DNA of 64,000 nucleotides from Escherichia coli (GTDB lineage: Bacteria > Pseudomonadota > Gammaproteobacteria > Enterobacterales > Enterobacteriaceae), in NCBI RefSeq assembly GCF_003018255.1, contig NZ_CP027440.1; one strand, given 5' to 3'. Shown piece by piece: positions 34,244 to 62,680 of the stretch. The position numbers were made by a program, and so were the translations under genes. How positions within the stretch are numbered: the first letter of the stretch is position 1; every line of letters begins with the position of its first letter. The notes below the pieces were generated by a model, which did not search any database, was not told where the DNA came from, and worked only from the letters and a program-made list of their open reading frames with translations.

Positions 34244-34248
34244 TCTTG

Positions 34249-36818: not shown

Positions 36819-36828
36819 GCGGGCCTCC

Positions 36829-37386
<558 letters not shown>

Positions 37387-37406
37387 TATGCGTAATCAGG
37401 GGTCAA

Positions 37407-38199: not shown

Positions 38200-39402
38200 A
38201 TGTCGAGTAAGTTAGTACTGGTTCTGAACTGCGGTAGTTCTTCACTGAAATTTGCCATCATCGATGCAGTAAATGGTGAAGAGTACCTTTCTGGTTTAGC
38301 CGAATGTTTCCACCTGCCCGAAGCACGTATCAAATGGAAAATGGACGGCAATAAACAGGAAGCGGCTTTAGGTGCAGGCGCCGCTCACAGCGAAGCGCTC
38401 AACTTTATCGTTAATACTATTCTGGCACAAAAACCAGAACTGTCTGCGCAGCTGACTGCTATCGGTCACCGTATCGTACACGGCGGCGAAAAGTATACCA
38501 GCTCCGTAGTGATCGATGAGTCTGTTATTCAGGGTATCAAAGATGCAGCTTCTTTTGCACCGCTGCACAACCCGGCTCACCTGATCGGTATCGAAGAAGC
38601 TCTGAAATCTTTCCCACAGCTGAAAGACAAAAACGTTGCTGTATTTGACACCGCGTTCCACCAGACTATGCCGGAAGAGTCTTACCTCTACGCCCTGCCG
38701 TACAACCTGTACAAAGAGCACGGCATCCGTCGTTACGGCGCGCACGGCACCAGCCACTTCTATGTAACCCAGGAAGCGGCAAAAATGCTGAACAAACCGG
38801 TAGAAGAACTGAACATCATCACCTGCCACCTGGGCAACGGTGGTTCCGTTTCTGCTATCCGCAACGGTAAATGCGTTGACACCTCTATGGGCCTGACCCC
38901 GCTGGAAGGTCTGGTCATGGGTACCCGTTCTGGTGATATCGATCCGGCGATCATCTTCCACCTGCACGACACCCTGGGCATGAGCGTTGACGCAATCAAC
39001 AAACTGCTGACCAAAGAGTCTGGCCTGCTGGGTCTGACCGAAGTGACCAGCGACTGCCGCTATGTTGAAGACAACTACGCGACGAAAGAAGACGCGAAGC
39101 GCGCAATGGACGTTTACTGCCACCGCCTGGCGAAATACATCGGTGCCTACACTGCGCTGATGGATGGTCGTCTGGACGCTGTTGTATTCACCGGTGGTAT
39201 CGGTGAAAATGCCGCGATGGTTCGTGAACTGTCTCTGGGCAAACTGGGCGTGCTGGGCTTTGAAGTTGATCATGAACGCAACCTGGCTGCACGTTTCGGC
39301 AAATCTGGTTTCATCAACAAAGAAGGTACCCGTCCTGCGGTGGTTATCCCAACCAACGAAGAACTGGTTATCGCGCAAGACGCGAGCCGCCTGACAGCCT
39401 GA
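38200..39402 (+). CDS. ackA: acetate kinase
   Basis: 400-aa ORF ([23 protein letters not shown]...). Confidence 0.96.
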
Positions 39403-39476
39403 TTTCACACCGCCAGCTCAGCTGGCGGTGCTGTTTTGTAACCCGCCAAATCGGCGGTAACGAAAGAGGATAAACC

Positions 39477-41621: not shown

Positions 41622-41659
41622 TCTCGTCATCATCCGCAGCTTTACGCTGCGGATATCTG

Positions 41660-41691
41660 AACCGGAAATAGTCACTATTTCCGGTTTTTTA
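41660..41691 (+). terminator. rho-independent terminator of ackA-pta
   Basis: ACCGGAAATAG...CTATTTCCGGT stem followed by T6; preceded by a second hairpin at 41632..41654. Confidence 0.8.
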
Positions 41692-41810
41692 TTCTCTTAA
41701 TTTGCATTAATCCTTTCTGATTATCTTGCTTAACTGCGCTGCATCAATGAATTGCGCCATCTCAATTTGCATACTTACCACTTTGTTTTGTGCAAGGGAA
41801 TATTTGCGCT

Positions 41811-43331
41811 ATGTCCGCAATCACTGAATCTAAACCAACAAGAAGATGGGCAATGCCCGATACGTTGGTGATTATCTTTTTTGTTGCCATTTTAACCAGC
41901 CTTGCCACCTGGGTAGTTCCGGTGGGCATGTTTGACAGTCAGGAAGTGCAGTATCAGGTTGATGGTCAAACAAAAACACGCAAAGTCGTAGATCCACACT
42001 CATTTCGCATTCTGACTAACGAAGCAGGCGAACCTGAGTATCACCGCGTACAGCTGTTCACGACGGGCGATGAACGCCCGGGTCTGATGAACTTCCCGTT
42101 TGAAGGGTTAACCTCAGGATCGAAATACGGGACAGCCGTTGGCATCATCATGTTTATGCTGGTGATTGGCGGCGCGTTTGGCATTGTGATGCGTACAGGA
42201 ACCATTGATAACGGTATCCTGGCGCTTATTCGCCATACCCGCGGAAATGAAATTCTCTTTATTCCTGCGCTCTTTATTCTGTTTTCACTTGGCGGCGCGG
42301 TATTTGGTATGGGAGAAGAGGCCGTCGCCTTTGCCATTATCATCGCACCGCTAATGGTCCGGCTGGGCTATGACAGTATTACCACCGTCCTGGTGACCTA
42401 TATCGCCACGCAAATCGGTTTTGCCAGTTCGTGGATGAACCCGTTTTGTGTGGTTGTTGCTCAGGGGATTGCCGGCGTTCCGGTGCTTTCTGGCTCCGGG
42501 TTGCGCATCGTGGTGTGGGTTATCGCCACTCTGATTGGCCTGATCTTTACCATGGTGTACGCCTCACGAGTGAAAAAGAATCCTCTTCTGTCACGCGTGC
42601 ATGAGTCCGACCGCTTCTTTCGTGAAAAGCAGGCGGATGTTGAACAACGTCCGTTTACCTTTGGTGACTGGCTGGTATTGATTGTCCTGACCGCCGTAAT
42701 GGTCTGGGTGATTTGGGGCGTGATCGTTAATGCCTGGTTTATTCCAGAAATTGCCAGCCAGTTCTTCACCATGGGTCTGGTGATTGGCATCATCGGCGTT
42801 GTTTTCCGCCTTAACGGCATGACGGTTAATACCATGGCTTCATCCTTTACCGAAGGGGCGCGAATGATGATCGCCCCTGCCCTCCTGGTGGGTTTCGCCA
42901 AAGGGATTTTGCTGCTGGTCGGTAATGGTGAAGCGGGTGATGCCAGCGTGTTAAATACCATCCTCAACAGCATTGCCAATGCCATTAGCGGTCTGGATAA
43001 CGCGGTCGCGGCCTGGTTTATGTTGCTCTTCCAGGCGGTATTTAATTTCTTCGTGACATCTGGTTCTGGTCAGGCGGCGTTAACCATGCCGTTACTGGCA
43101 CCGCTTGGCGATCTGGTCGGTGTAAACCGTCAGGTTACCGTTCTGGCGTTCCAGTTTGGTGATGGCTTCAGCCACATCATTTACCCGACCTCAGCTTCGT
43201 TAATGGCAACGCTCGGTGTTTGCCGGGTGGACTTCCGTAACTGGCTGAAGGTGGGCGCGACACTGCTTGGACTGCTGTTTATTATGTCCAGCGTCGTGGT
43301 GATCGGCGCTCAGTTGATGGGCTACCACTAA
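41811..43331 (+). CDS. yfcC: putative membrane transporter (YfcC/C4-dicarboxylate anaerobic carrier-like family)
   Basis: 506-aa product from ATG (MSAITESKPTRR...); ORF track begins at an upstream GTG. Confidence 0.85.
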   Translation: MSAITESKPTRRWAMPDTLVIIFFVAILTSLATWVVPVGMFDSQEVQYQVDGQTKTRKVVDPHSFRILTNEAGEPEYHRVQLFTTGDERPGLMNFPFEGLTSGSKYGTAVGIIMFMLVIGGAFGIVMRTGTIDNGILALIRHTRGNEILFIPALFILFSLGGAVFGMGEEAVAFAIIIAPLMVRLGYDSITTVLVTYIATQIGFASSWMNPFCVVVAQGIAGVPVLSGSGLRIVVWVIATLIGLIFTMVYASRVKKNPLLSRVHESDRFFREKQADVEQRPFTFGDWLVLIVLTAVMVWVIWGVIVNAWFIPEIASQFFTMGLVIGIIGVVFRLNGMTVNTMASSFTEGARMMIAPALLVGFAKGILLLVGNGEAGDASVLNTILNSIANAISGLDNAVAAWFMLLFQAVFNFFVTSGSGQAALTMPLLAPLGDLVGVNRQVTVLAFQFGDGFSHIIYPTSASLMATLGVCRVDFRNWLKVGATLLGLLFIMSSVVVIGAQLMGYH

Positions 43332-43337
43332 AAATGT

Positions 43338-43366
43338 TAAGAGCCGCAATTGCGGCTCTTTTTTCA
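43338..43366. terminator. bidirectional terminator between convergent yfcC and yfcD
   Basis: AGAGCCGC-AATT-GCGGCTCT perfect hairpin followed by T6; overlaps yfcD stop. Confidence 0.75.
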
Positions 43367-43906
43367 TTCTGCCGTTTCAGTCTCTACGGCTTCATTTTTG
43401 GCATTGCGCTTCATCCACAACGCCAGCGCTTTCAGCGAGTCTGGAGTGAACTCATCGCAGCGTGCGGTGATTTCTTCCGGCGTCAGCCAGCAAACTTCGC
43501 TGACTTCATCTTCCTGTAGGGCGAAGGGACCGTGAGAGACGCAGCTGAACAACGCGCCCCAGACACGGCAATTTTTATCTTCGAAATAGAACTGCCCGTG
43601 CTCGGCAAAGGGGACACCGGCAATGCCCAACTCTTCTTCCGCTTCGCGACGCGCGGATTCCAGCAGTTGCTCATCGGCCTGGACTACACCGCCTGCGGTC
43701 GCATCTAACATGCCGGGTAAAAAGTCTTTTGTCTCGGTACGACGCTGGACCAGAATTTTGCCCATGCCATCATGCACGACGATGTAAGTTGCACGATGAC
43801 GCAGACACTGTGCCCGCATTTGTTCCCGGCTGGCTTGTGCAATGACTTCGTTCTCTTCATTGACAATATCCACCCATTCAGTACTTGCCAAACGACGCTG
43901 TTCCAT
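43364..43906 (-). CDS. yfcD: Nudix hydrolase
   Basis: 180-aa ORF with Nudix box ([24 protein letters not shown]). Confidence 0.88.
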
Positions 43907-43963
43907 TATCAGGAAACCTTCTTTTTCTGGCGCTCTTACGGCGCATTTTGAGTTGTGGGTAAA

Positions 43964-44518
43964 TTACGGATTAATCGCGACCTGCGCAATGATACTTTGA
44001 TCATTGAGTGCGATTACACTAAGTACGTCATTATCCAGCATGCCATAACTCGCCGGATTACCGCCTTTAGGAATACTCACCGAGCCGGGGTTGAAGTGGA
44101 AAATCTCCCCCCGCTGTTCTGCCACTGGCAGATGGGTATGACCGTACACCAGCACATCGTTCTGGTTTAAAGCAGGTAGGTTTTCCGGGCCAAACAGATG
44201 ACCATGCGTCAAAAACAGACGTTGTTTTTCCAGTAATACCTGTTGCCACGGCGCGGTTATCGGGAAATGCAAAAGCATTTGATCCACTTCGCTGTCGCAA
44301 TTGCCGCGCACAGCGATAACCTTATGTGCCACTTCATTAAGCCGTTCAGCGACTTTGGCTGGCGCGTAACCCTCCGGTAAAGCATTACGCGGGCCGTGAT
44401 TCAACACGTCGCCAAGGATCACCAGCCACTGGGCACCACTTTGGGCAAACAACTCCAGAACACGTTCCGTCGCCGGTAACGACCCATGAATGTCCGATGC
44501 AAACATCAGTTTCATCAC
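43964..44518 (-). CDS. yfcE: metallophosphoesterase / phosphodiesterase
   Basis: 184-aa ORF with calcineurin-like motifs (DIHG, GDVLNHG, GHTH). Confidence 0.88.
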   Translation of the reverse strand: MMKLMFASDIHGSLPATERVLELFAQSGAQWLVILGDVLNHGPRNALPEGYAPAKVAERLNEVAHKVIAVRGNCDSEVDQMLLHFPITAPWQQVLLEKQRLFLTHGHLFGPENLPALNQNDVLVYGHTHLPVAEQRGEIFHFNPGSVSIPKGGNPASYGMLDNDVLSVIALNDQSIIAQVAINP

Positions 44519-44521
44519 TCA

Positions 44522-45998
<1,477 letters not shown>

Positions 45999-46054
45999 CA
46001 GAAACAGGTTCTCGTGTATTATTTCATCCTAAGTAAAACAACGGAGAACCTGCA

Positions 46055-46417
46055 ATGGCACAACCTGCCGCTATTATTCGTATAAAGAACCTTCGTTTAC
46101 GTACGTTTATCGGAATTAAGGAAGAAGAAATTAACAACCGTCAGGATATTGTTATCAATGTGACTATCCACTACCCCGCCGATAAAGCGCGCACCAGCGA
46201 AGATATCAACGATGCGCTGAATTATCGCACCGTGACGAAAAACATTATTCAGCATGTAGAGAATAACCGTTTCTCTTTGCTGGAAAAATTAACTCAGGAT
46301 GTGCTCGATATCGCACGTGAACATCACTGGGTGACGTATGCTGAAGTGGAGATCGATAAACTGCACGCGCTGCGCTACGCCGATTCGGTATCCATGACCT
46401 TAAGCTGGCAGCGTTAA
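46055..46417 (+). CDS. folX: dihydroneopterin triphosphate 2'-epimerase
   Basis: 120-aa FolB/FolX-fold ORF. Confidence 0.88.
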
Positions 46418-46437
46418 CCGCCATATCGGGAGGCTGC

Positions 46438-47331
46438 ATGAAGATAGTGATCACCGGAGGGACAGGATTAATTGGTCGCCATTTGATTCCACGTTTGCTG
46501 GAGCTGGGCCATCAAATCACGGTAATGACGCGTAACCCGCAGAAAGCCAGTTCTGTTCTCGGCCCTCGGGTGGCACTATGGCAAGGGCTTGCCGATCAAA
46601 GCAACCTCAACGGCGTTGATGCGGTAATCAACCTGGCCGGAGAACCGATTGCTGATAAACGCTGGACTCACGAGCAAAAAGAGCGTCTCTGCCAAAGCCG
46701 CTGGAATATCACGCAAAAACTGGTCGATTTGATTAATGCCAGCGACACGCCGCCGTCGGTACTCATTTCCGGCTCGGCAACGGGCTATTATGGCGACTTA
46801 GGTGAAGTGGTGGTTACCGAAGAGGAACCGCCGCATAACGAATTTACTCATAAACTCTGCGCCCACTGGGAAGAAATTGCCTGCCGGGCGCAAAGTGACA
46901 AAACGCGAGTGTGCCTGCTGCGTACCGGCGTAGTGCTGGCACCGGATGGCGGTATTCTCGGTAAAATGCTGCCGCCGTTTCGTCTTGGCCTGGGCGGGCC
47001 GATTGGTTCCGGTCGGCAGTATCTGGCCTGGATTCATATTGATGATATGGTCAACGGCATTCTCTGGCTGCTGGATAACGAGCTGCGCGGGCCATTTAAT
47101 ATGGTTTCGCCCTACCCGGTACGCAATGAACAATTTGCCCATGCGCTCGGTCATGCGCTGCATCGCCCGGCTATTTTGCGCGTCCCCGCAACCGCCATTC
47201 GGCTGTTAATGGGCGAATCTTCAGTACTGGTATTAGGTGGACAACGCGCGCTGCCTAAACGGCTGGAAGAAGCGGGTTTTGCGTTTCGTTGGTACGATTT
47301 AGAAGAGGCGCTGGCGGATGTCGTTCGCTGA
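46438..47331 (+). CDS. yfcH: NAD-dependent epimerase/dehydratase family protein (DUF1731)
   Basis: 297-aa ORF with N-terminal GGTGxIG Rossmann motif. Confidence 0.85.
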
Positions 47332-47378
47332 TGTGGTTTACTGCAAACATCCGCCAGTTAACTCCCGGTGTTACAGGG

Positions 47379-47552
47379 TTAGTGGCTTTGCGCGATAAGA
47401 TCGTCTGGTGAAAGTCGGGTCACCATCATAACTAACTCTCGGTCTAAACCTCTCTCCAGCATCTCCTGAGCAATACGCAGGGCTTCTTCGCGTTTGCCAA
47501 GAATTAATCCATCATTCCGCCCTTCTTCACGTAATCTGTCAGCAATAGTCAT
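47379..47552 (-). CDS. candidate internally initiated small protein = C-terminal domain of RpnB (57 aa, [15 protein letters not shown]...), RpnS-like
   Basis: In-frame ATG at 47552 preceded on the coding strand by GAAAAGGAGAAACTG (AAGGAG SD, ~6-nt spacing) inside rpnB. Confidence 0.4.
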
Positions 47553-48281
47553 CAGTTTCTCCTTTTCTTGTGGTGCGCGTTCCGCTATCTCACCAATAAA
47601 TGCACGGAAACGCTGGGCATCCCCCGTTTGTAATACGTAATTAAACAGGGCTTTTAGCTGTCTGTCATTAGTGTTCCCTGTAACTAGCAGCGAAACAATT
47701 TGGTCGACTAATCCCAACAGATCGCGCTGACGAATATGTTTCTGAATTAACTCCAACAGCGCCATTTTGCGATGTTGCATAATCTCGTCATCCGGCACCA
47801 CGGTAATATCTACCAGCGGAAAAGCCGATGAATAAATTTTGCGGGCTATAGCAGGCTCGGCAAATTCATCAAGCCAGCAAAGTGAATAAGGATAAGGACT
47901 TCTGCAACCATGATAAAACAGCATCGGGATCACCAATGGAAGCTCTTTATAGCCTGCATCAAGATGGTTTTGCATCGCCGCAATGGAATAGCGCATCATG
48001 CGAAAAGCCATTAATTCTTCCGGCTTACTTTGGTGCTCTATCACTACATAAATATAACCCGCTCCCTCCTGCGTTTTCACAGACCACAAGAGGTCGGAAT
48101 AATATTGCCGCAGGTCTTCATCAATAAAACTGTTTGGTTCCAGTTTTAGCGTTGTTAAATCACACAGTTTGCGCAGCGGCGCGGGAAGATGAATATCAAT
48201 AAAATCCCGCGCGGTGTCTGGATGGCGTAAAAAAGATTTAAATACCGCATCATGCGGCGTGGAAGTTGTCGATATTGTCAT
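47379..48281 (-). CDS. rpnB: recombination-promoting nuclease RpnB (PD-(D/E)xK, YhgA-like)
   Basis: 300-aa ORF, Rpn/transposase_31-like N-terminal domain plus small C-terminal domain. Confidence 0.85.
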
Positions 48282-48477
48282 GGCGTTCCGTCACCCCTCA
48301 AATTTAAGATGACGCGACAATAACCACGATTAATACCCAATGCAGCAGGCAGTTTTTATCTTTGGACAGCGAATTCAGAACTATTTTTAGCGGACTGCAA
48401 CTTTTACATTTCAGCGGAAGCTGACTCGCAAATTCCCCTTGAAAATACTCCGGCAGCGTTAGCCACCGGAGGGGGAA

Positions 48478-49251
48478 TTATTTCAGCGATCCCTTAAGGA
48501 ACTGTTGCAGACGAGGGCTTTGCGGGTTACCAAATAACTGTTCTGGCGCGCCCTCTTCTTCTATTTTCCCCTGATGGAGGAAAATGACGTGAGTAGAAAC
48601 ATGGCGAGCAAAGCCCATTTCGTGAGTCACTACCACCATGGTTTTCCCCTCTTCTGCCAGTTGCTGCATAATACGTAACACTTCGCCTACCAGTTCAGGA
48701 TCGAGCGCCGAGGTAGGTTCATCAAATAGTAAAACTTCCGGTTCCATTGCCAGCGCCCTTGCGATGGAAACACGCTGTTGCTGACCACCGGACAGGTGCA
48801 CCGGGTATTTCCCCTGCGCACGTTCGTCTATCCCGACTTTTGCCAGATATTTCACCGCCCGCTCGCGCGCTTCCTGCTTGCTCAGGCCCAACACCTGAAT
48901 CGGCGCTTCCATGACGTTTTCCAGCACCGTCATATGGCTCCAGAGATTGAAGTGCTGGAATACCATCGTCAGGCGTGTGCGCAATAAGCGCAGCTGATTT
49001 TTATCGGCGACTTTGAGTTGACCGTCTTTATCGCGCACCAGATTGATCGTCTGGCCATTGACCACGATCGATCCTTCGCTCGGTTTTTCGAGGAAGTTAA
49101 TGCAGCGCAGAAAGGTACTTTTCCCCGATCCCGACGATCCGATGATGCTTATGACATCTCCGGCATTCGCTTGCAGTGAGACCCCTTTCAGCACTTCGTG
49201 TTCGCCGTAGCGTTTGTGCAAATCGATAACGTTTAATTTATTCTCGGACAT
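48478..49251 (-). CDS. hisP: histidine/Lys-Arg-Orn ABC transporter ATP-binding protein
   Basis: 257-aa ORF with Walker A (GSSGSGKST) and ABC signature (LSGGQQQR). Confidence 0.95.
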
Positions 49252-49258
49252 CGTATTC

Positions 49259-49975
49259 TCAGTGCGTTGAAGAAGGTTTCACATGCTGCAACCAGCGTTT
49301 TTCCGCTCTGCGAAAGAGGCTGATCAGGACATAAGAGATGATTAAATAGAGCACCGCGGCAATGCCGAAGGCGGTAAAAGGTTGATACGTGGCGGCGTTA
49401 ATATCGCGGGCAATTTTCAGCAGATCCGGCACCGTGGCCGTAAACGCCAGCGCAGTAGAGTGCAGCATCAGGATCACTTCGTTGCTGTATGCCGGTAACG
49501 CAATACGCAGCGCAGAAGGCAAAATAATGCAGCGATACATTTTAAAGGTCGAGAAGCCATAGGCTCTGGCGGCTTCAATTTCCCCATGCGGCACTGAACG
49601 GATTGCCCCGGCAAAAATCTCGGTAGTGTAAGCGCAGGTGTTAAGCGTCAGCGCCAGCACGGTACAGTTCAGACCACTGCGAAAAAAGGCGTTAAGGAAC
49701 TCGGTTCCCTTAACAATCTCCAGCGTGTACATGCCGGAATAAAACACCAGCAACTGAACATACAGCGGCGTACCGCGAAAAATATAGGTAAATAACCAGA
49801 TTGGAAACTGGATGTATTTATTACTTGAGACGCGACCAATCGCCAGAAACAGCGCCAGAACTCCGCCTATCACTACCGACAAAATCAGCAGCCACAGGGT
49901 GATTGCCACGCCAGTAAAGCGATAACCGTCAGTCCACAGCAGTGGTTTCCAGTATTCATGTAAGATTTCGATCAC
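49259..49975 (-). CDS. hisM: histidine/Lys-Arg-Orn ABC transporter permease
   Basis: 238-aa permease ORF; overlaps hisQ. Confidence 0.92.
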
Positions 49976-50658
49976 AGGTCAGACCTCTTCACACCCACGG
50001 AGTAGCGGCGCTCAAGGAACAGCAGCACACCATTGGAAACAGTGGTAAAAACCAGGTAAATCACGCCACAGACGATGGCGAAATAGAACGGTTCCCAGGT
50101 ACTTTTGCCTGCCAGCTGAGTGGCTTTGACCACATCTTCCAGGCCGAGTAACGAAACGAGTGCGGTAGATTTGAGGATCACCTGCCAGTTGTTGCCAATG
50201 CCTGGCAGGGCGTAACGCATCATCGCCGGAAACATGATCCGCCGAAACACTTGCCCACGAGTAAAACCGAACGCCGTCGCCGCCTCTATATGTCCTTTCG
50301 GCACTGCCATAAAAGCACCACGGAACGTTTCGGTAAAATAAGCACCGTAGATAAAACCGAGAGTGATAATACCTGCGACCATCGGATCAATATCAATCTG
50401 CCCGACGCCCATCGCCTCCGTCACCGTGTTTAGCGCAATCTGCAAACCGTAGAAAATCAGCAGCATCAACACCAAGTCCGGCACGCCTCGAATCAGCGTG
50501 GTGTACCCTTCGAAAATCAGCCCCGAAAGCCGATTTTGCGAGAGCTTACCGCCAGCGCCAATTAAACCGATAATTACAGCGAGCACTACAGAGCTGATAG
50601 CCAGCTCCAGCGTGACGAGCGCACCCTGTAAAATAACACCTGAAAACCCATACAACAT
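49972..50658 (-). CDS. hisQ: histidine/Lys-Arg-Orn ABC transporter permease
   Basis: 228-aa permease ORF. Confidence 0.92.
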   Translation of the reverse strand: MLYGFSGVILQGALVTLELAISSVVLAVIIGLIGAGGKLSQNRLSGLIFEGYTTLIRGVPDLVLMLLIFYGLQIALNTVTEAMGVGQIDIDPMVAGIITLGFIYGAYFTETFRGAFMAVPKGHIEAATAFGFTRGQVFRRIMFPAMMRYALPGIGNNWQVILKSTALVSLLGLEDVVKATQLAGKSTWEPFYFAIVCGVIYLVFTTVSNGVLLFLERRYSVGVKRSDL

Positions 50659-50747
50659 GCTGCCTGTCCTGTCGTGTGTGGTGAATTACCGCCTCTTGTC
50701 TCCCTCCGGTTACCCGAAGGGAGCGGACCTTCTTTCACCGATGGCGA

Positions 50748-51530
50748 TTAACCACCATAAACATCAAAATCGAAGTACTTTTTCGCTAATTTCTCGTAAG
50801 TACCGTCAGCGCGCATTTCGGCAAAGGCTTTGTTCAGTGCCTCGCGCAGTTCGTTATCTTCTTTACGCAGGCCCATGCCGGTCCCTACGCCAAACAGTTT
50901 TTCATCTTTAACAGACGGACCACCGAATTTGTAATCTTTACCGACGGGTTGTTTGAGGAAACCTTCGCTGGCAGCGACCTCATCCTGGAACGCGGCATCA
51001 ATACGTCCGGCAGTCAGGTCAGAATAAATGTTGTCCTGCCCCTGATAAGAAACGATTTCAATGCCTTTTGGTGCCCAATGTTCGTTACCGAACGTCTCCT
51101 GGGTGGTGCCCTGCAATACGCCTACCCGTTTGCCTTTCAGCGACTCGACTGTCGGCTGAATGTCGGAATTTTTCGCCACCACCAGACGAGAATCGGCAGC
51201 GTACAGTTTGTCGGTGAAGGCAATTTCTTGCTGACGTTTTTCCGTAATGGAAAGCGATGACATGATGGCGTCAATCTTCTTCGCTTTTAAGGACGGGATT
51301 AACGCATCCAGTGGGTTTTCGACAAACGTACATTGCGTATTGATGCGTTTGCACAACTCCTTCGCCAGATCGATATCGAAGCCAACCAGTTCGCCTTGTG
51401 AATTTTTTGATTCAAATGGCGCATAGGTCGGATCGGTACCGATGCGGATGTTTTGCGGAATCGCAGCAAACGCAGCAGTTGCGCTGGAGAAGGCCAGAAC
51501 CAGAGAGAGCGATAGCACCAGTTTTTTCAT
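50748..51530 (-). CDS. hisJ: histidine-binding periplasmic protein
   Basis: 260-aa ORF with signal peptide; paralog of adjacent argT. Confidence 0.92.
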
Positions 51531-51665
51531 AATGTCCTCAACTGACAGTCTTTTTATAGGGAATATTTACAGGTTTGTTACACTTATCGTGCCATAAAAT
51601 TGACCATCAAGGCAAAATATCCCGCCCCGTTAGACGTATTATTTTTCATTAAAAATGCTTAAGTA

Positions 51666-51720
51666 TGCATTTCAATGCACCACGATAGTGCAACAAACCT
51701 GGCGTGCACCATGATGATCA
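51666..51720. promoter_or_regulatory. cluster of operator-like palindromes between argT and hisJ (NtrC- or ArgR-type candidates)
   Basis: TGCATT-TC-AATGCA perfect palindrome overlapping TGCACC-ACGAT-AGTGCA, then GTGCACCATGATGATCA. Confidence 0.35.
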
Positions 51721-51750
51721 TTCCATCAGGTACAGTTTCCCTGCGACGTA

Positions 51751-52533
51751 TCAGTCACCGTAGACATTAAAGTCGAAATACTTTTTCGCCATCTTGTCGT
51801 AGGTACCGTCCTGACGCAGCTCGCCAAGCGCCTTATTAAACGCCGCCGTCAGTTCAGCATCATCTTTACGTAGCCCTACACCGGTACCGTCACCGAAGTA
51901 TTTTTTGTCTTTCACTGATGAGCCAGCAAAAGCGAACTCTTTACCGGCTGGTTGCTTGAGGAATCCTTCACTGGCAGCAACTTCATCTTGTAACGCAGCA
52001 TCCAGACGTCCTGCAGCCAGATCGGAATAAACCAAATCCTGGTTGGCATAGGCCACCACATCCACGCCTTTGCTACGCCAGGTCTCGTTAGCGTATGCTT
52101 CCTGGGTTGATCCCTGCAGCACACCCACATGTTTACCTTTCAGTGAATCCAGCGTTGGCTGAATCGGTGAACCTTTGGCGGCAATCAAACGAGAATCTGC
52201 GGCGTACAACTTGTCGGAGAAAGCAATCTCCTGCTGACGTTTATCGGTAATGGAGAGCGACGAAATAATGGCGTCGATTTTTTTCGCTTTTAGTGAGGGG
52301 ATCAGCGCGTCAAAGTCACTGGCAACCCAGGTACATTTCACCTGCATCCGTTTGCACATCTCGTTACCGAGATCGATATCAAAGCCAACAAAGTCACCTT
52401 TGGCATCTTTCGATGAGAACGGCGCATAGGTGGTATCGGTTCCGATACGTACCGTCTCCGGTAGCGCCGCATAGCTGGAAGCCGCTGCGGAGAGACCGAC
52501 TAACAAAGACAGAGCGAGAATCGACTTCTTCAT
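51751..52533 (-). CDS. argT: lysine/arginine/ornithine-binding periplasmic protein
   Basis: 260-aa ORF with signal peptide; upstream paralog of hisJ. Confidence 0.92.
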
Positions 52534-52560
52534 ACATAACCCTCAAGTGAAAATGGCTTT

Positions 52561-52590
52561 TTTATGTTGTGTATTGTGTTGTGTGTTTGC
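52561..52590 (-). promoter_or_regulatory. C/A-rich element in argT 5' UTR (GcvB-sRNA target-type sequence)
   Basis: Minus-strand GCAAACACACAACACAATACACAACATAAA between the sigma54 promoter and the SD (GAGGG). Confidence 0.55.
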
Positions 52591-52601
52591 AGGCTCTTTC
52601 A

Positions 52602-52617
52602 TGCAGGTCTTATGCCA
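52602..52617 (-). promoter_or_regulatory. sigma54 (-24/-12) promoter of argT
   Basis: Minus-strand TGGCATAAGACCTGCA: GG and GC spaced as in the TGGCAC-N5-TTGCA consensus, about 70 bp upstream of argT ATG. Confidence 0.65.
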
Positions 52618-52798
52618 TCTTTACGACAACAGTAACATTCAACGTTAAATATGTTAATAAGACGTTGCATTATTGTCCTAAAGTTGAAGATAGCAGGTAT
52701 GGCGGTTGAATCGCAGCGTTTCGATTCATCGAAAGGAACAAAATGTCGAGGATTTGATCGCGGTTGCAAAATTGCCCTGAAACAGGGCAACAATGAGG

Positions 52799-53368
52799 TT
52801 ATGCGCCCTGCCAGCGGGCAAAGAGATCTTCAGGAAGGGTTATCGCAAACTGGTCAAGAACACGATTAACCGTCTGATTTATCACATCATCAAGGGATTG
52901 TGGGCGATGATAAAACGCCGGAACGGGAGGCATAATCACCGCACCGATTTCTGCCGCCTGAGTCATTAAACGCAGATGGCCTAAGTGCAGTGGCGTTTCA
53001 CGCACGCAGAGCACCAACGGGCGACGCTCTTTCAGCACCACATCTGCCGCACGGGTCAGTAAGCCATCAGTATAGCTATGGACAATGCCGGACAGGGTTT
53101 TGATTGAACAGGGTAAAATCACCATCCCCAACGTCTGGAAAGAACCGGAAGAAATGCTGGCAGCAATATCGCGCGCATCGTGTGTCACATCAGCTAACGC
53201 CTGCACTTCGCGCAGGGAAAAATCCGTTTCGAGGGATAAGGTCTGGCGCGCTGCCTGGCTCATTACCAGATGCGTTTCGATATCTGTGACATCGCGCAGA
53301 ACCTGTAATAAACGCACGCCATAAATCGCGCCGCTGGCACCGCTGATGCCTACAATGAGTCGTTTCAT
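52799..53368 (-). CDS. ubiX: flavin prenyltransferase UbiX
   Basis: 189-aa flavoprotein-fold ORF downstream of purF. Confidence 0.92.
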   Translation of the reverse strand: MKRLIVGISGASGAIYGVRLLQVLRDVTDIETHLVMSQAARQTLSLETDFSLREVQALADVTHDARDIAASISSGSFQTLGMVILPCSIKTLSGIVHSYTDGLLTRAADVVLKERRPLVLCVRETPLHLGHLRLMTQAAEIGAVIMPPVPAFYHRPQSLDDVINQTVNRVLDQFAITLPEDLFARWQGA

Positions 53369-53462
53369 AAATAGTTGCCCTGTCAGACTTGCAGGCAGAC
53401 TTTGCAGGATTTCGACGGGAGTTGCAAGTCAGGGTGCCAGACCGGCACCCTGAGCGAAGGCA

Positions 53463-54981
53463 TCATCCTTCGTTATGCATTTCGAGATTTTCCACTTCGT
53501 TCTGACGTTGCACTGCTTTGGCGTCGTCATTACGTAAAGTATCGAGGAAATCGAGGTAGCCCTGATCAACGTCTTTGGTGACGTAGACGCCGTTGAATAC
53601 CGAGCATTCAAACTGCTGGATATCCGGGTTTTCAGCGCGAACGGCTTCGATCAGATCGTTCAGATCCTGGAAAATCAACCCGTCAGCACCGATGATCTGG
53701 CGAATTTCATCTACTTCGCGACCGTGAGCGATCAGTTCCGTGGCGCTCGGCATATCGATACCGTAAACGTTCGGGAAGCGAATTTCCGGTGCCGCAGAAG
53801 CGAGGTACACTTTCTTCGCTCCGGCTTCGCGTGCCATCTCGATAATCTGCTCAGAAGTGGTGCCACGGACAATGGAGTCGTCGACCAGCAAGACGTTTTT
53901 ATCGCGGAACTCGGCGCGGTTGGCGTTCAGTTTACGGCGCACGGACTTACGACGCAGCTGCTGGCCCGGCATGATGAAGGTGCGGCCAACATAGCGGTTT
54001 TTAACGAAGCCCTGGCGGTACGGTTTGCCCAGAATACGAGCAATTTCCAGCGCGATATCACACGAGGTTTCCGGAATAGGGATCACCACGTCGATATCCA
54101 GATCTTCCCATTCGCGGGCAATTTTCTCGCCCAGTTTGGTGCCCATATTCACGCGCGCGCTGTAAACGGAAATTTTGTCGATGAACGAGTCCGGGCGGGC
54201 AAAGTATACATACTCAAACAGGCACGGATTGCTGACCGGATTGTCAGCACATTGACGGGTAAACAACTGCCCTTCTTCAGTGATGTAAATCGCTTCGCCC
54301 GGCGCGACGTCACGCAGGAAATCAAAGCCCAGCGTATCGAGCGCAACGCTTTCGGAAGCGACCATATATTCTGTACGGTTCTCGTCAATATCACGTTTTC
54401 CCAGTACCAACGGACGAATACCGTTTGGATCGCGGAAAGCAACCATACCGTGGCCGATGATCATCGCCACACAGGCATACGCGCCGCGGATTAAGCGGTT
54501 TGTAGCAGCGATGGCGGCGAAAATGTTGTCGGCTTCCAGCGGATAGTGGCGGAAGTTGTCCAGTTCGCTGGCAAAGATATTAAGCAGAATTTCCGAGTCG
54601 GAAGTGGTGTTGATGTGGCGGCGTTTTTCTTCAAACAGTTTTTTTACGCAACTCGTGAGCGTTGGTCAGATTGCCGTTGTGGGCAAGCGTAATGCCATAC
54701 GGGGAGTTAACGTAAAACGGCTGCGCTTCAGAGGCGCTGGAGCTGCCAGCCGTAGGGTAACGCACATGACCAATGCCCATATTGCCCTGCAAACGCTGCA
54801 TATGGCGAGCTTCAAATACATCGCTCACCAGCCCGTTCGCTTTACGCAAACGGAAGCAGTTATTGGCATCTATGGTGATGATGCCGGCGGCATCCTGACC
54901 GCGATGCTGAAGCACCGTTAAGGCATCATAAATCGACTGGTTAACCGGCATAACACCGGCGATACCGACAATACCGCACAT
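53463..54981 (-). pseudogene. purF: amidophosphoribosyltransferase PurF, reading frame broken by a +1 insertion in a homopolymer run (or sequencing error)
   Basis: N-terminal 116-aa ORF ([10 protein letters not shown]...ELRKKTV*) and C-terminal 335-aa ORF lie in different frames; coding strand reads CGT AAA AAA ACT GTT TGA at the junction. Confidence 0.8.
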
Positions 54982-55017
54982 ACGTCTTTTTCCTCGTTAA
55001 GCCACATCTCAGAGCAC

Positions 55018-55506
55018 TTACGCTCTGGGCAAGAAACTTGACGAGCTTTGCAGATAATCAAAAAACCATCTGATGATAAAACTGAACTGCGGGATCAGCT
55101 GTGATTTGCTCCAGTCTTCGCTTTTCGACACCCCGGTAAAGGAGTCGAGAAAGAAGAGAATGGCGGCAACAATCAACACACCGCGCAACGCACCGAAACA
55201 GACGCCCAGCACCCGATCGGTGCCTGACAACCCCGTTTTCTCTACCAACTGGCCTATCACGAAGTTCACGATAGCACCAACGATCAGGGTAGCGATAAAC
55301 AGTACCGCGATGGCAATCCCATTTCGAACCAGTTCGTCTTCAAAGCCCGTAAACCAGACTGACAGGTAAGTGTAGTAATGACTGGCAACAAAGAAAGCAC
55401 AACCCCATGTCACCAGCGATAACGCTTCACGAACAAAGCCGCGGATCAGGCTAACCAGAGAGGAAAAAGCAATCACCGCGATTATGGCGTAATCAATCCA
55501 GACCAT
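55018..55506 (-). CDS. cvpA: colicin V production membrane protein
   Basis: 162-aa membrane ORF immediately upstream of purF. Confidence 0.92.
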   Translation of the reverse strand: MVWIDYAIIAVIAFSSLVSLIRGFVREALSLVTWGCAFFVASHYYTYLSVWFTGFEDELVRNGIAIAVLFIATLIVGAIVNFVIGQLVEKTGLSGTDRVLGVCFGALRGVLIVAAILFFLDSFTGVSKSEDWSKSQLIPQFSFIIRWFFDYLQSSSSFLPRA

Positions 55507-55563
55507 ATGTGTCCCACGATTTTACGCCCTGTCATCCTGTTCGGGGCGCATTCTAACAGAAAA

Positions 55564-55579
55564 AGAAAACGTTTGCGTA
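55564..55579 (-). promoter_or_regulatory. PurR operator (PUR box) upstream of cvpA-purF
   Basis: Minus-strand TACGCAAACGTTTTCT, near-perfect match to the 16-bp PUR box palindrome, about 60 bp upstream of cvpA ATG. Confidence 0.7.
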
Positions 55580-55671
55580 GGGATTTCCTTCCCGCGCATC
55601 AATAAAAATGGCGCTGAAAAAACATTCAACGCCATCGACTTTTTATGCCTTTGCGGCATCGGGCAATGCGT

Positions 55672-55755
55672 GTCGGATGCGGCGTGAACACCTTATCCGA
55701 CCTACGGTTCTACCCCTGTGTAGGCCTGATAAGACGCGCCAGCGTCGCATCAGGC
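55672..55755. repeat. BIME: two inverted REP copies between cvpA and dedD
   Basis: GTCGGATGCGGCGTGAACACCTTATCCGACCTAC and TGTAGGCCTGATAAGACGCGCCAGCGTCGCATCAGGC in opposite orientation. Confidence 0.7.
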
Positions 55756-55764
55756 AAGACCGTA

Positions 55765-56415
55765 TTAATTCGGCGTATAGCCCATTACCACGCCACTTAA
55801 GCCAGAAAGTTGCTTCAACTCACCCAGCGATCCTTTCAGCTTATCTTTCGAGGCATCAGGCCCAACCAGAATACGGGTAATTTTACCCTGCACTGGCGTG
55901 GATGGCGACGTATAAACCCGATAACCGGCACCGCGCAGCTTACCGACAATCTCATTCACTTTATCGGCATTTTTCAGCGCGCCCAGTTGCACAACATAGG
56001 CTTTACCCGTTGGCGCTGCTTTTTCTTCCACGACCGGCTTCGACGCAGGTGGTGCTTCAACCTTCGGTTTAGGCGACTCCACCGGTTTCGGCTTCGGTGG
56101 GGCGACCGGTGCAGGTTCCGGTTCAAACTCGGTGTTATTGACTGCAATAGTGGCCGGATCGAGCGACGGTGCTGCGGCATCACCTGCCCGCACCTCTTCC
56201 GCTGCGCCTTCCGGCGGCTGCGTCGGCAGCGCCTGGGTGGCGGCTGGCATCATATCAGGCTCATCGCGATCGCCCGCTTTCGGCACCAGCGGGATAGCCG
56301 CGAACTCATCCTGATAATGTTTTTTCTGCCCGTCCAGCAGCCCTGGAAGTACAATCACCCCCAGCGCCACCAGCACGATCGTGCCCACTAACCGATTCTG
56401 AAACTTACTTGCCAC
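55765..56415 (-). CDS. dedD: cell-division protein DedD (SPOR domain, Pro/Lys-rich linker)
   Basis: Probable GTG start giving MASKFQNRLVGT... (alternative ATG at 56433); C-terminal SPOR-like domain; overlaps folC 3' end. Confidence 0.8.
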   Translation of the reverse strand: MASKFQNRLVGTIVLVALGVIVLPGLLDGQKKHYQDEFAAIPLVPKAGDRDEPDMMPAATQALPTQPPEGAAEEVRAGDAAAPSLDPATIAVNNTEFEPEPAPVAPPKPKPVESPKPKVEAPPASKPVVEEKAAPTGKAYVVQLGALKNADKVNEIVGKLRGAGYRVYTSPSTPVQGKITRILVGPDASKDKLKGSLGELKQLSGLSGVVMGYTPN

Positions 56416-57673
56416 CGCTTCTCCTCGCGTCAATCACTTCCATGACATGTGCGACCGTGTGGAACGAACCACACACCAGCACGGTATCTTCCGCTTTAGC
56501 GTCCGCCATTGCGGCATCCCATGCCTGCGCCACGCTATCAAATGATTTGCCGTTACCCAAATGCTCAAGCAGTTGTTCTGCCGTGGCACCGCGCGGCCCT
56601 TCCAGTGGCGCACAATACCAGTCATCAACCACGCTTTTCAACCAGGCCAGAGTTCCGGCAATATCTTTATCATGTAGCATACCGATAACCGCCAGCACGC
56701 GCCCGTTTTTCGGTAGCGCTTTCATACGCCCGGTGAGATATTCCGCCGCATGTGGATTATGCGCGACATCAAAAATAACGCGTGGCGACTCGCTCACAAT
56801 CTGGAAACGTCCCGGCAAAATTGCGCTGGCAATCCCGTCGCGAATGGCATTTTCACTGACCTCCAGCCCGCTGGCACGCAGTGCCGCCAGCGCCGTTGCG
56901 GCATTCGGTTGCGGGACAAGCGGCAACGGCAGATTTTTCAGCGTGCCGTGAGCATCGCTAAACGCCCAGTCATGATCGGTGACGGAATAGTTCCACTCAA
57001 CGCCCCGACGTTGTAACAGTGCACTTTTTTCCTGCGCCACATCAGCAATGGTAGAAGGCATTTCCGGCTCACCGACAATTGCCGGTTTTTCGCTGCGGAA
57101 GATGCCTGCTTTCTCGCGACCAATGCTTTCGCGATCTGGCCCCAGCCAGTCGGTATGATCCAGCGCAATGCTGGTTACTACCGCAACATCGGCATCGACA
57201 ATATTGGTTGCGTCCAGACGACCGCCCAGCCCTACTTCCAGAATCACCACGTCAAGTTGTGCCTGTTTGAACAGCCACAACGCCGACAGCGTACCGTACT
57301 CGAAATAGGTCAGGGAAATATCACCGCGTGCCGATTCAATCTCCGCAAAAGAGGCGGTGTGGGCCGATTCCGGCAATTCCTGGCCCTGCACACGTACGCG
57401 CTCGGTATAACGCACCAGATGCGGCGAACTGTAGACGCCCACTTTGTACCCTGCCGCCATCAGAATCGACTCCAGCGTACGGCAAGTGGTGCCTTTGCCA
57501 TTCGTACCCGCAACGGTAAACACAAATGGCGCAGGTTTCAGGACGCCAAGACGCGCCGCGACCTGGCTCACGCGCTCAAGGCCGAGATCGATAGTTTTAC
57601 TGTGCAGGTTTTCCAGATAAGAAAGCCACGAAGCCAGAGGCGACGCGGCTTGAGGAGTGCGTTTGATAATCAT
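56405..57673 (-). CDS. folC: dihydrofolate synthase / folylpolyglutamate synthase
   Basis: 422-aa Mur-ligase-family ORF. Confidence 0.93.
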   Translation of the reverse strand: MIIKRTPQAASPLASWLSYLENLHSKTIDLGLERVSQVAARLGVLKPAPFVFTVAGTNGKGTTCRTLESILMAAGYKVGVYSSPHLVRYTERVRVQGQELPESAHTASFAEIESARGDISLTYFEYGTLSALWLFKQAQLDVVILEVGLGGRLDATNIVDADVAVVTSIALDHTDWLGPDRESIGREKAGIFRSEKPAIVGEPEMPSTIADVAQEKSALLQRRGVEWNYSVTDHDWAFSDAHGTLKNLPLPLVPQPNAATALAALRASGLEVSENAIRDGIASAILPGRFQIVSESPRVIFDVAHNPHAAEYLTGRMKALPKNGRVLAVIGMLHDKDIAGTLAWLKSVVDDWYCAPLEGPRGATAEQLLEHLGNGKSFDSVAQAWDAAMADAKAEDTVLVCGSFHTVAHVMEVIDARRSGGK

Positions 57674-57742
57674 GGTATCCGCTGATTCGTTACGGTGAGA
57701 ATAGCAAAAGGGCAGAGCCAGTGGCCCTGCCCTTATCAGTTA

Positions 57743-58657
57743 TCAGGCCTCAGGTTCCTGATCTGGTACCGGTGGCACCACTACGCCTTCACGCGGCGCT
57801 TCAGGATTCGGCGCTGGCAGATTCATCAACTTCGCCAGAATGCTCGCCAGTTTCAGGCGCATTTCCGGACGACGGACGATCATGTCGATCGCGCCTTTCT
57901 CGATCAGGAATTCACTGCGCTGGAATCCTGGCGGCAGTTTTTCGCGAACGGTCTGTTCGATAACACGCGGACCGGCAAAGCCGATTAACGCTTTCGGTTC
58001 AGCGATGTTGAGATCGCCCAGCATGGCGAAACTTGCAGAAACACCGCCCATGGTAGGGTCGGTCAGCACGGAGATGTACGGCAAGCCGCGCTCCTGCATT
58101 TTTGCCAGCGCCGCAGAGGTTTTCGCCATCTGCATCAGCGACATCAGTGCTTCCTGCATACGTGCGCCACCAGAGGCGGAGAAGCAGATCAGTGGGCAGT
58201 TATCTTCCAGCGCCTGCTCAACGGCACGCACGAAACGTGCACCTACCACAGACCCCATGGAACCGCCCATAAAGGCGAACTCGAATGCCGCAGCGACAAC
58301 TGGCATTCCATACAGGGTGCCTTTCATCACCACCAGCGCATCTTTTTCGCCGGTTTCTTTCTGCGCAGATGCCAGACGGTCTTTATACTTCTTGGAGTCA
58401 CGAAACTTCAGCACATCTTTCGGCTCAAGCTCGCTACCCAGCTCCACAAGGCTTCCTTCATCTAACAGGCTATGCAGGCGATTACGCGCTGTCATACGCA
58501 TGTGATGGTCACACTTCGGACAGACCTCAAGATTACGTTCCAGCTCAGCGCGGTATAAAACCTGACCGCAGCTATCACACTTAGTCCACACCCCTTCAGG
58601 AATGCTCGCCTTGCGGGTGGGAGTAATGTTGCTTTTAATTCGTTCAATCCAGCTCAT
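57743..58657 (-). CDS. accD: acetyl-CoA carboxylase carboxyltransferase beta subunit
   Basis: 304-aa product from [16 protein letters not shown]... with CxxC...CxxC zinc finger; ORF track extends 28 codons upstream. Confidence 0.93.
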
Positions 58658-58812
58658 TAGGGACCTTTCTGTCTGAACCTGGTTCGATGCCAGTTTTATC
58701 TTTGGGGACGCATAATGCCATTTTTGCCCCCAACAGACCATGAATGTTGCACATTAAAACATAACAGCCCGAAACTTTGGATAAAAAAGTGGTCGAACCG
58801 CGGAGTTACTTT

Positions 58813-59472
58813 TTATTTTGCGGCGCGTGCCGCAGCGCGTTTGTGGCGAATAAATTCGAAAACACCTGGCAATATTGAAACAAAAATAATGCCAACAATC
58901 ATCAGTTTAAGGTTGCTCTGAATGAAGGGGAGCGTTCCGAAGAAATAACCCGCGTAGGTAAAAATCAGTACCCATAGCAACGCGCCGATGACGTTAAAAG
59001 CGGCGAAATGACGATACGACATGTGGCCCATTCCCGCAACGAACGGCGCGAACGTTCTGACGATCGGCACAAAACGGGCGAGAATAATCGTTTTGCCGCC
59101 ATGTTTCTCATAAAACTGATGAGTCTTATCAAGATAACTGCGACGAAAGATTTTCGAATCCGGATTACTGAACAGTTTGTCACCAAATAACCGTCCAATG
59201 GTGTAGTTCACCGCGTCACCCACAATCGCGGCGATCAGCATCAGCACCACCATCATATGGACGTTGAGATCGTTGGTTTCCAGTGATGCCAACGCACCGG
59301 CAACAAACAGCAATGAATCACCCGGTAAAAACGGCGTTACCACCAGACCGGTTTCACAGAACAAAATTAAGAACAAAATGGCATAAACCCAGACGCCATA
59401 CTCCGCGACCAGTTCTGCCAGATGCACGTCAATGTGCAGGATAAAATCGATGAGGAAATAAATCAGGTCCAT
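58813..59472 (-). CDS. dedA: DedA family inner membrane protein
   Basis: 219-aa membrane ORF. Confidence 0.9.
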
Positions 59473-59554
59473 ATTAGCCTATGCCTTGTACTCGTCATCT
59501 TTCAGGCTGTAACTACGTTGGCTACAGCCTGAAATGTTCCGAGCATTATTCTTG

Positions 59555-60367
59555 TTAGTCCGCCAGAAATAGCGGGCCCATTGGCGGTTTTGGAAGATCA
59601 TACCGGTCAGGGTAATCCACCGCGACCAGATACAGCCCTTCCGCTTTTGCCGTTGCTGCCGCCAGCGTTCTGTCCTTTGCCGCCAGCAACTCTGCTATCC
59701 AGCTCTCCGGCTGGTTGTGGGCACCGACTTCCATCAGGCTGCCGACAATATTCCTGACCATATGATGTACAAAGGCATTCGCTTTGATATCTACCACCAC
59801 ATAAGGACCGTGACGCGTGACATTAATATGCATAACGTTGCGCCACGGGGTTCGGGACTGGCACTGCACCGCACGGAACGAGGTGAAATCATTCTCGCCC
59901 AGCAAGCATTGCGCAGCCCGATGCATCCGTTCAGCGTCCAGCGGTTCGTAAAAATGGGTTACCCCTTTACTCAGTACCGCCGGGCGCAGCCGATGATTGT
60001 AGATGATGTAGCGATAACGGCGAGCCGTGGCGCTAAATCGGGCATGAAAATCATCAGGTACAGCTTTAACCCAACGCACGGCGATGTCACCAGGTAAATT
60101 CGCATTTACGCCCAACGTCCACGCAGCGTCTTTGCGCTGTGCGGTCGTTTCGAAATGCACAACCTGCCCGGTACCGTGTACACCGGCGTCAGTACGCCCG
60201 GCGCAGAAGACGGTGATGGGTTCGTTCGCCACCTGGGAGAGCGCCTTTTCCAGCTTCTCCTGCACACTGCGGACTTCATTCTGCCGTTGCCAGCCGTAAT
60301 ACCTACTGCCGTCGTACTCAATGCCCAGCGCAATTTTATAAACTGGCGGTTGTTGCTGGTCGGACAT
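59555..60367 (-). CDS. truA: tRNA pseudouridine(38-40) synthase
   Basis: 270-aa ORF; overlaps usg stop. Confidence 0.93.
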
Positions 60368-61380
60368 TAGTACAGATACTCCTGCACCAGTTTCTCGGCG
60401 ATTTTTACTGCCATCAGCGCGCCGCCAAAGCGAACGTTATCGGCCACCGACCAGAACTGAACTTGCTCCGGCATACCGTAGTCATTACGTACGCAGCCAA
60501 CAGAAAGATGCGGCGTACCAGAAGCATCTCCTACCTGAGTCGGGAATTCGTTCTCTTCAGAGAGCACAATATCTTCGCCCTGAGCAAACGCATCACGCGC
60601 TTCTTCTGCCGCCAGCGGACGCAGTGCTTCAAAGTTGACCATCTGGGCATGACCGTAGAATACCGGTGCCTGGACGACGCTTGCCGAAATCATCAGCCCT
60701 TCGTCCTGCAGGATTTTGCGTACTTCGTCAACGATACGACGTTCTTCACGCACGCTACCTTCGCTATCCGGCAGTAACGGCAGCATGTTGAACGCCAGCT
60801 GACGCCCGAAGAAATCTTCTTCGTCAATCGGAATGCCATTGAGTAATTTAGCACTCTGCCCCGCTAACGCATCGACCGCTTTTTTGCCCTGGGCGGAGGC
60901 TGAAATCAGGCTGGTAACGCTGATACGTGATAAACCGCCCTGATCAATTAGCGGTTTCAGTGCCGCCAGCAGCTGGCTGGTCAGACTGTCCGGTACGGCG
61001 ATGACATTCCGGTTGCGGTAATCGGTCAGTACAAACGGGTTTACTTCCGGCACTACCAGCGGTACGTCAGGTTCGAGAGCAAACAATCCGCTGCTGTCGA
61101 TCACCAGACAACCTGAGTTGGTCGCTTCTTCAACCCAGGCAGCGGTAGCTTCTTTGCCTGCGACAAAAAATGCCAGCTGCGCCTGCGTCCAGTCAAATTC
61201 AGCGGCATCCTGCACGGTGATTGTCTTACCACCAAAGCGCAGTTGTTCGCCTGCGCTTTCGTTACGTGCCAGTGCATAAATTTCCCCAACCGGGAACTGA
61301 CGTTCAGCCAGCGTTTCAAGCAGGGCTTCGCCCACAGCGCCAGTTGCGCCCAGGACGGCAATGTTCCAGCCTTCAGACAT
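60367..61380 (-). CDS. usg: USG-1 protein (aspartate-semialdehyde dehydrogenase homolog)
   Basis: 337-aa ORF with N-terminal Rossmann motif (VLGATGAVG). Confidence 0.9.
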
Positions 61381-61445
61381 GGTGGTTTACTCCAGAAATA
61401 GCAAAGCTCCCTGCCAATGTTACAGCAGAGAGCATGAAGAAGAGA

Positions 61446-62582
61446 TTAACGTGCCGGATGATGAACGGCGTTAAAACCCAGTTTACACAGCAATGATGCC
61501 GCACTGGCGTCATCACAAATTACATACAGAGATGACCATTCACGGCGCTCAAGATAGTTTTTGCGCAGTTTATCGAACTCACCCGGTATCCCGGCGACTT
61601 TACGCAGTGGCGCATCATCGCGGCGCACATCATACACCAAATGCACCAGCCTTTTCAGCGTCGGTTGATCGAGCGGACCATGCAGCGTAATGCGACCAAA
61701 CTCTGGCGCGGGCAGTAATGTATCCAGCGCAACGTGTTGTTCATGCCCAATGAATTTGCTATAGGCTTCAAACACTTGCGTAGTACCGCGTGCTTTACCT
61801 TCCAGGGTATAGCCTGCAATATGCGGCGTGCCGATATCCACTTTTGTCAGCAATTCCACATTAAGTTCCGGCTCGCCTTCCCAGACATCCAGCACCACGC
61901 TTAACTTCTGGCCTTCATTCAGGCAGGTCAGCAGCGCGGTATTATCGACGACTGCGCCACGGCAGGCGTTAATCAGAATCGCTCCGGGCTTCAGGCTACG
62001 GATCAGTTTTTCATCCGCCAGATGTCGCGTTTTGTACGGACCATCTTTAAAGAGTGGCGTATGGAAAGTCAGAATATCCGCATGCTGGACTAATTCATCC
62101 AGCGAGCGGAAATCGCCCTCATCCCCACGGTCGGCGCGAGGCGGATCGCAAAGCAAGGTTGTAATCCCTAACGCTTCCAGTCGTGCCTGTAAACGCCGAC
62201 CAACGTTACCAACGCCCACGATCCCCACGGTACGCTCGTGCAGTGAAAATCCATCGCGTTCAGCAAGCATCAGCAGTGAGGAGAAAACATATTCCACTAC
62301 TGCAATCGCATTACAGCCAGGTGCAGCGGAAAAACCAATTCCCGCCTGCTTTAACCATGTGTCATCAACATGGTCTGTCCCCGCGGTGGCAGTGCCAACA
62401 AATTTAATGGGTTTTCCTGCCAGCAAAGATTCATTCACTTTCGTGACCGAACGCACCATCAGCGCATCCGCGTCTGCCAGTTGAGCCACGGGGATGGGAC
62501 GCCCGGGAACCGCGGTCACCTCACCCAAACGGCTAAATAAGTCGCGGGCATAAGGCATATTTTCATCAACAAGGATTTTCAC
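61446..62582 (-). CDS. pdxB: erythronate-4-phosphate dehydrogenase
   Basis: 378-aa D-2-hydroxyacid dehydrogenase-family ORF. Confidence 0.93.
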
Positions 62583-62680
62583 GTTTGTGTTACCTGTATG
62601 AGACGAGAGTTAACCGGACAAGTGTGCCATAATCTCGCGGCCAGGCATACTTGCGAAGATTTCAGGTATAAGGATACGTA

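Follow-up and report, generated by a model that had tools for sequence, protein, structure and literature searches.

The question raised by this locus is what to make of an operon for de novo purine synthesis in which the operator appears intact and purF carries one additional base in a homopolymer run: is the operon decaying, was it hit by a very recent mutation, or is the extra base an error of the assembly? The window, by which we mean the whole stretch of 64,000 nucleotides that was analysed, corresponds to the E. coli chromosome from arnD to flk. On its minus strand, dedD (55765..56415, 216 aa) is the upstream neighbour and is followed by a hairpin, the operator, cvpA (55018..55506), purF (53463..54981) and ubiX (52799..53368), which matches the known cvpA-purF-ubiX arrangement downstream of dedD. 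The cvpA gene, annotated under this name in both JNE23-011 and K-12, is intact with 162 aa and differs from its K-12 counterpart by 4 nt and 1 aa, and ubiX, the third gene of the operon, is intact with 189 aa. With 1519 nt, purF is frameshifted.

Several features of the neighbourhood are recorded here in their own right. The dedD gene encodes 216 aa in the window and in JNE23-011 and 220 aa in K-12-like strains, the difference being an in-frame 12-bp polymorphism in a repetitive part of the gene (56032..56044, minus strand). Between purF and ubiX, 10 nt past the stop codon of purF, the minus strand contains a GC-rich stem-loop (53430..53452) whose stem has 9 bp (CAGGGTGCC ggtct GGCACCCTG); as a T-run is missing, it is probably not an intrinsic terminator. 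REP/BIME-like palindromic units are found between dedD and the cvpA promoter (55650..55760), and alignments to other strains break or overlap there, which indicates variation in copy number or arrangement between strains. Far from the operon, positions ~12966..13076 map to a 111-nt pseudogene remnant of elaD (deubiquitinase) that is annotated in JNE23-011, the lineage having no intact elaD. Among 5,426 complete E. coli genomes, a single one gave no match at all to the cvpA-purF region, and this genome may have undergone a deletion of the operon.

The preliminary description placed a PUR box at 55564-55579. Indeed, the sequence given for it, TACGCAAACGTTTTCT, is present there on the cvpA strand (minus) and the site is real, but its register is off by one base: the canonical 16-bp palindromic register of the PurR operator in the cvpA-purF-ubiX promoter is 55563..55578 (minus strand ACGCAAACGTTTTCTT; plus strand AAGAAAACGTTTGCGT). 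In this register the 16-mer shows two mismatches to the perfect palindrome ACGCAAACGTTTGCGT and one mismatch, on either strand, to the published consensus ACGNAAACGTTTGCNT. By both measures it is the sole site in the 64-kb window, with 0.04 expected in each case; for the palindrome this rate was derived from shuffles, 4 out of 100 of which reached one match. The centre of the operator is AAACGTTT with its central CpG step, and it is at this CpG that the hinge helices of PurR reportedly kink the DNA (Schumacher et al. 1994). All 16 letters are those of the PurR site determined by ChIP-chip for cvpA-purF-ubiX in K-12, AAGAAAACGTTTGCGT (Cho et al. 2011, Table 1; PMC3159470). Judged by its sequence, the 16-mer at 55563..55578 is the classical purine repressor operator of the E. 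coli cvpA-purF-ubiX operon. Both this operator and the architecture of the operon were already known, and what the window holds is the K-12 purF operator itself and no variant of it.

The surroundings of the operator are equally well conserved. The 116 bp 5' of the cvpA ATG, which hold the PUR box, the motif TGtTAGAAT and the leader, are 100% identical to K-12 MG1655 by direct alignment. A control region of 134 bp reaches at least 95% identity in every one of the 5,425 complete E. coli genomes and at least 99% in 4,232 of these. Of the 25 other E. coli loci that include the 38-nt core with the operator and the -10 element, 24 have this core unchanged, and the single deviation comes from the noisiest assembly. 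The claim that promoter and operator are intact is thereby borne out. Within this region, TGtTAGAAT (55550..55558, minus strand; identical in K-12) is a candidate extended -10 element, with the TAGAAT hexamer at 55555..55550 and a gap of 7 nt to the operator, which itself covers the position where a -35 element would be expected. No canonical -35/-10 pair was called in the consensus promoter scan, which demands a -35 hexamer, as would be expected with the operator at this position. The terminator scan returned a terminator-like hairpin with a T-run downstream of dedD (55607..55636, minus strand; one loop SNP relative to K-12), a candidate for separating the cvpA promoter from upstream transcription.

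PurR, a dimeric member of the LacI family, requires hypoxanthine or guanine as a ligand in order to bind its imperfect palindrome (Rolfes and Zalkin 1988; Schumacher et al. 1994; Cho et al. 2011). From the geometry of the site and this known biology, we propose that PurR carrying hypoxanthine or guanine would bind the palindrome at 55563..55578 and that, since the operator covers the place of the -35 element and lies 7 nt from the -10 element, the bound repressor would block RNA polymerase and switch the operon off when purines are plentiful. In the ChIP-chip study, the purF site was occupied by PurR only with adenine added, and many PurR sites were located between -35 and -10 (Cho et al. 2011; PMC3159470). 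The purR gene lies outside the 64-kb window, and the operon, previously called normally regulated, may be presumed to be so. A run-off transcription study on sigma-S (PMC3141248) lists a transcript running opposite to cvpA that comes from the intergenic region in front of this gene, here the dedD-cvpA interval at positions 55507..55764 of the window.

The lesion in purF is an A7 run at 54639..54645 (minus strand; CGTAAAAAAACTG), where intact purF has A6, at codons 113-114 (Lys-Lys). The gene comprises 1519 nt against 1518 nt in the intact form, its reading frame breaks after codon 114, and a premature UGA follows two codons past the run (54631..54633, minus strand). This leaves an N-terminal fragment of 116 aa plus stop (54981..54631, minus strand), ending in ...ELRKKTV, and a C-terminal ORF at 54470..53463 on the same strand. 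PurF would be expected as a single frame of about 505 aa, uniting the glutaminase (Cys1) and the phosphoribosyltransferase; here, the glutaminase domain is cut short and the two domains lie on separate ORFs, and at the equivalent loci Pfam GATase_6 was assigned to the N-terminal and Pribosyltran to the C-terminal fragment. Taking away one A yields a complete frame of 1518 nt, identical to WP_000334221.1 and 100% identical to the intact purF of JNE23-011. Compared with K-12, the corrected gene differs in 31 codons, 30 of these differences being synonymous and one non-synonymous (D445E).

The age of this lesion can be judged against JNE23-011 (NZ_AP045067.1), the nearest complete genome, which is collinear with the window over the full 64 kb and shows no insertion; the best complete RefSeq genomes have 99.8-99.96% identity to the window. 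An origin from Shigella was considered and rejected, since 64 kb free of insertions would be improbable in a genome so rich in IS elements. Positions 1..33538 differ from JNE23-011 by 12 SNPs and no indels, and positions 33400..64000 by 77 SNPs and one indel, the purF A, so that beside 89 SNPs the extra base is the only indel in 64 kb. From 52485 to 56921 the two sequences are identical save for that A. Homopolymer runs of at least six bases have the same length in 60 of 61 cases, including all 16 other runs of at least seven, and purF is the only broken CDS among the 62 full-length genes in the window. The assertion that a single-base homopolymer change is the only defect of the operon therefore stands. 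The dN/dS-like comparison of the operon proposed in the preliminary description revealed no further disabling changes, the corrected purF being 100% identical to the intact allele. Since no other change separates the purF of the window from that allele, there is no sign of long-term decay, and with one lesion only, and 30 synonymous codon differences to one non-synonymous against K-12, the earlier reading as either a recent mutation or an artefact is supported. The SNPs relative to JNE23-011 are unevenly distributed and clustered, with 12 across the initial 33.5 kb against 77 across the final 30.6 kb, which suggests recombination tracts.

A survey of public genomes bears on that choice. Among 5,425 complete RefSeq E. 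coli genomes, 5,423 have neither A7 nor A5, and A7 occurs in two, O25:NM 2014EL-1343-2 (NZ_CP024228.1; CP024228 in the following) and NCTC9022 (NZ_LR134237.1). Both show the same A6-to-A7 change with the same 116-aa product, and in both purF was flagged 'frameshifted' by the NCBI pipeline PGAP. Their backgrounds are unrelated to that of the window, with 54 and 32 mismatches, respectively, over the 2.9-kb operon; as far as the alignments tell, their A7 runs are independent events or errors and not a matter of shared ancestry. In CP024228, the purF A7 is the lone pseudogene within 50 kb, and in NCTC9022 the neighbouring dedD is frameshifted as well.

In a large protein collection, the exact 116-aa product was present on 12-21 contigs, three accessions being from NCTC assemblies, which we take to be PacBio-only. 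Ten A7 loci were retrieved, all of them 1.8-3% diverged from the window; together with the window they represent at least seven haplotypes, none of them close to the window. As these haplotypes are dozens of SNPs apart, the A7 change is best regarded as polyphyletic. Seven carriers are single contigs of more than 1 Mb, and many other split genes were seen in 4 of the 10 loci examined. For two further carriers, on short contigs of 42 kb and 15.6 kb, the flanks retrieved contain no split genes; one of these two (L013) has one further indel relative to the window. A scan of one genome per GTDB species found no A7 allele. The exact 333-aa C-terminal fragment occurs in 183 blocks; for the 10 loci retrieved from these, identity to the window is 97-98%.

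The same run also occurs with one base deleted. This A5 form, which gives a 162-aa product (...ELRKNCLKK...), was seen on no fewer than 266 public contigs, spread over several haplotypes, and in none of the 5,425 complete RefSeq genomes, and the two A5 loci examined (L022 and L024) belong to heavily fragmented assemblies. The pattern suggests a systematic deletion error of long-read data.

As a control, nine other A6/T6 runs, all located in neighbouring genes, were given a simulated +1 change, and the truncated products were looked up in the protein collection. For seven of the nine runs the product was present: cvpA +T on 63 contigs with the exact product, menB +A on 12, usg +T on 11 (three accessions share the form of the NCTC ones), usg +A on 6, hisM +T on 3, flk +A on 2 and folC +A on 1, while hisJ +A and yfbR +A were each found on none. 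The count for purF A7 (12-21 contigs) falls within this range. The A7 of purF is thus at background level for homopolymer length changes in public assemblies, and much of this background goes with long-read data. Public long-read assemblies repeatedly miscall the purF A run, as they do similar runs in the genes nearby. The idea that purF is a particular mutational hotspot was considered and rejected, the frequency of A7 being no higher than that of the control runs. The look-up of simulated frameshifts offers a cheap test of whether a recurrent frameshift is special or background. In the case of cvpA +T (T6 run, 55061..55066 region, codon 148), the product of 149 aa has several NCBI accessions and loses the last 13 residues only, and it may be a tolerated real variant.

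The explanation we prefer, and consider somewhat more probable than even, is a miscall of this homopolymer by the assembly as the source of the extra A, in which case the operon of the living strain would be intact and normally regulated. In its favour, the identical A7 recurs in at least seven unrelated haplotypes, its carriers are often long-read, noisy assemblies (seven contigs above 1 Mb, three NCTC accessions, 4 of 10 loci with many split genes), the A5 version is present on at least 266 contigs yet in 0 of 5,425 complete genomes, and the +1 products at the control runs are about as frequent as purF A7. Moreover, purF is a core biosynthetic gene, the real loss of which would be selected against outside rich media. 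A noisy assembly should, however, err elsewhere too, and the window is clean, with 60 of 61 runs of at least six bases agreeing with JNE23-011. In CP024228, too, the defect stands alone over 50 kb, and if the two short-contig carriers without split genes in the flanks shown are short-read assemblies, A7 would be a genuine allele there.

These last observations speak equally for a real and very recent replication-slippage mutation in the isolate, below an operator as described here, an explanation that we rate a little under an even chance. The extra A is the sole indel in 64 kb with 60 of 61 runs concordant, the same isolated defect is seen in CP024228 and the two short-contig drafts, and homopolymer slippage is the commonest mechanism of spontaneous frameshifts. 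The lack of further change fits a young event just as it fits an artefact; the control region would be intact because there was no time for it to decay. Against a real mutation stands the presence of A7 in just 2 of the 5,425 complete RefSeq genomes, as well as a frequency in public data that equals that of arbitrarily chosen control runs and goes with noisy, long-read assemblies. Its carriers are polyphyletic and nowhere make up a lineage, which means that the allele fails to persist, and the loss of a core biosynthetic gene is costly outside rich medium.

If A7 is real nevertheless, only the 116-aa fragment of the glutaminase domain would be made, and the strain would be auxotrophic for purines, probably with a partial need for thiamine as well. 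About 1.2 kb of untranslated purF mRNA could lower the expression of ubiX through polarity, and rare +1 shifts or transcriptional slippage before the UGA could yield traces of the full-length enzyme.

From there it is a long step to a purF run that serves as a phase-variable contingency tract (A6/A7/A5) or as a recoding site restoring some full-length PurF, which we hold to be very improbable. Under such a scheme, A6 at codons 113-114 would act as a recurrent on/off switch for de novo purine synthesis, with recurrent A7 and A5 alleles and a leaky, reversible auxotrophy, a role to which we give only a slight chance; +1 frameshifting or transcriptional slippage on AAA-AAA-A just before the UGA would partly rescue PurF, and the intact PurR-controlled promoter would keep driving this auxotrophy. 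It is true that both the lengthened (+1) and the shortened (-1) version of the run are seen repeatedly, in many backgrounds, and that, with the UGA two codons past the run, a +1 shift there would lead to a full-length protein with two substitutions. Runs of 6-7 are short, though, true tracts and efficient slippage sites usually having 8-9 or more bases, and the variants are no more frequent than those of the control runs; among the 5,425 curated complete genomes, two have A7 and none has A5. The sequence shows no obvious stimulatory element, whether Shine-Dalgarno-like or structural, and the run is neither a long tract nor enriched in length variants over comparable tracts, as would be expected of a phase-variable one. 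A long-standing pseudogene, in a lineage without need for de novo purine synthesis and with a decaying operon, deserves next to no credence, as beyond the frameshift itself nothing favours it, the whole operon and promoter show no added change relative to the intact allele, 30 synonymous codon differences from K-12 face a single non-synonymous one, cvpA, ubiX, the operator and the -10 element are unaltered or intact, and none of the marks of a decaying pseudogene (several lesions, relaxed constraint, damaged signals) was found.

The purF 'pseudogene' of the window should not be read as gene decay or as evidence of a purine-auxotrophic lifestyle. Its value for annotation is that the purF event amounts to a single base at a homopolymer, without evolutionary age. 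The biological weight of the locus is small, the purF operator being among the best-characterised repressor sites of E. coli and unchanged here.

In comparison with K-12 MG1655, the purF operator of the window is the same 16-mer at the same distance of 57 bp from the cvpA ATG and within the same upstream 116 bp. The gene order cvpA-purF-ubiX is the same as well, and the control region reveals no difference at all; differences appear downstream, namely the A7 of purF (A6 in K-12) and the 31 codons, which are typical of strain divergence. The other PUR boxes of E. coli, among them those of purT, purC, purMN and pyrD, are built on the same palindrome of 16 bp around a central AAACGTTT (Cho et al. 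2011, Table 1). Compared with these other boxes of the pur regulon, the purF box is distinguished by a weaker promoter-proximal half-site, reading TTTTCTT in place of TTTGCGT.
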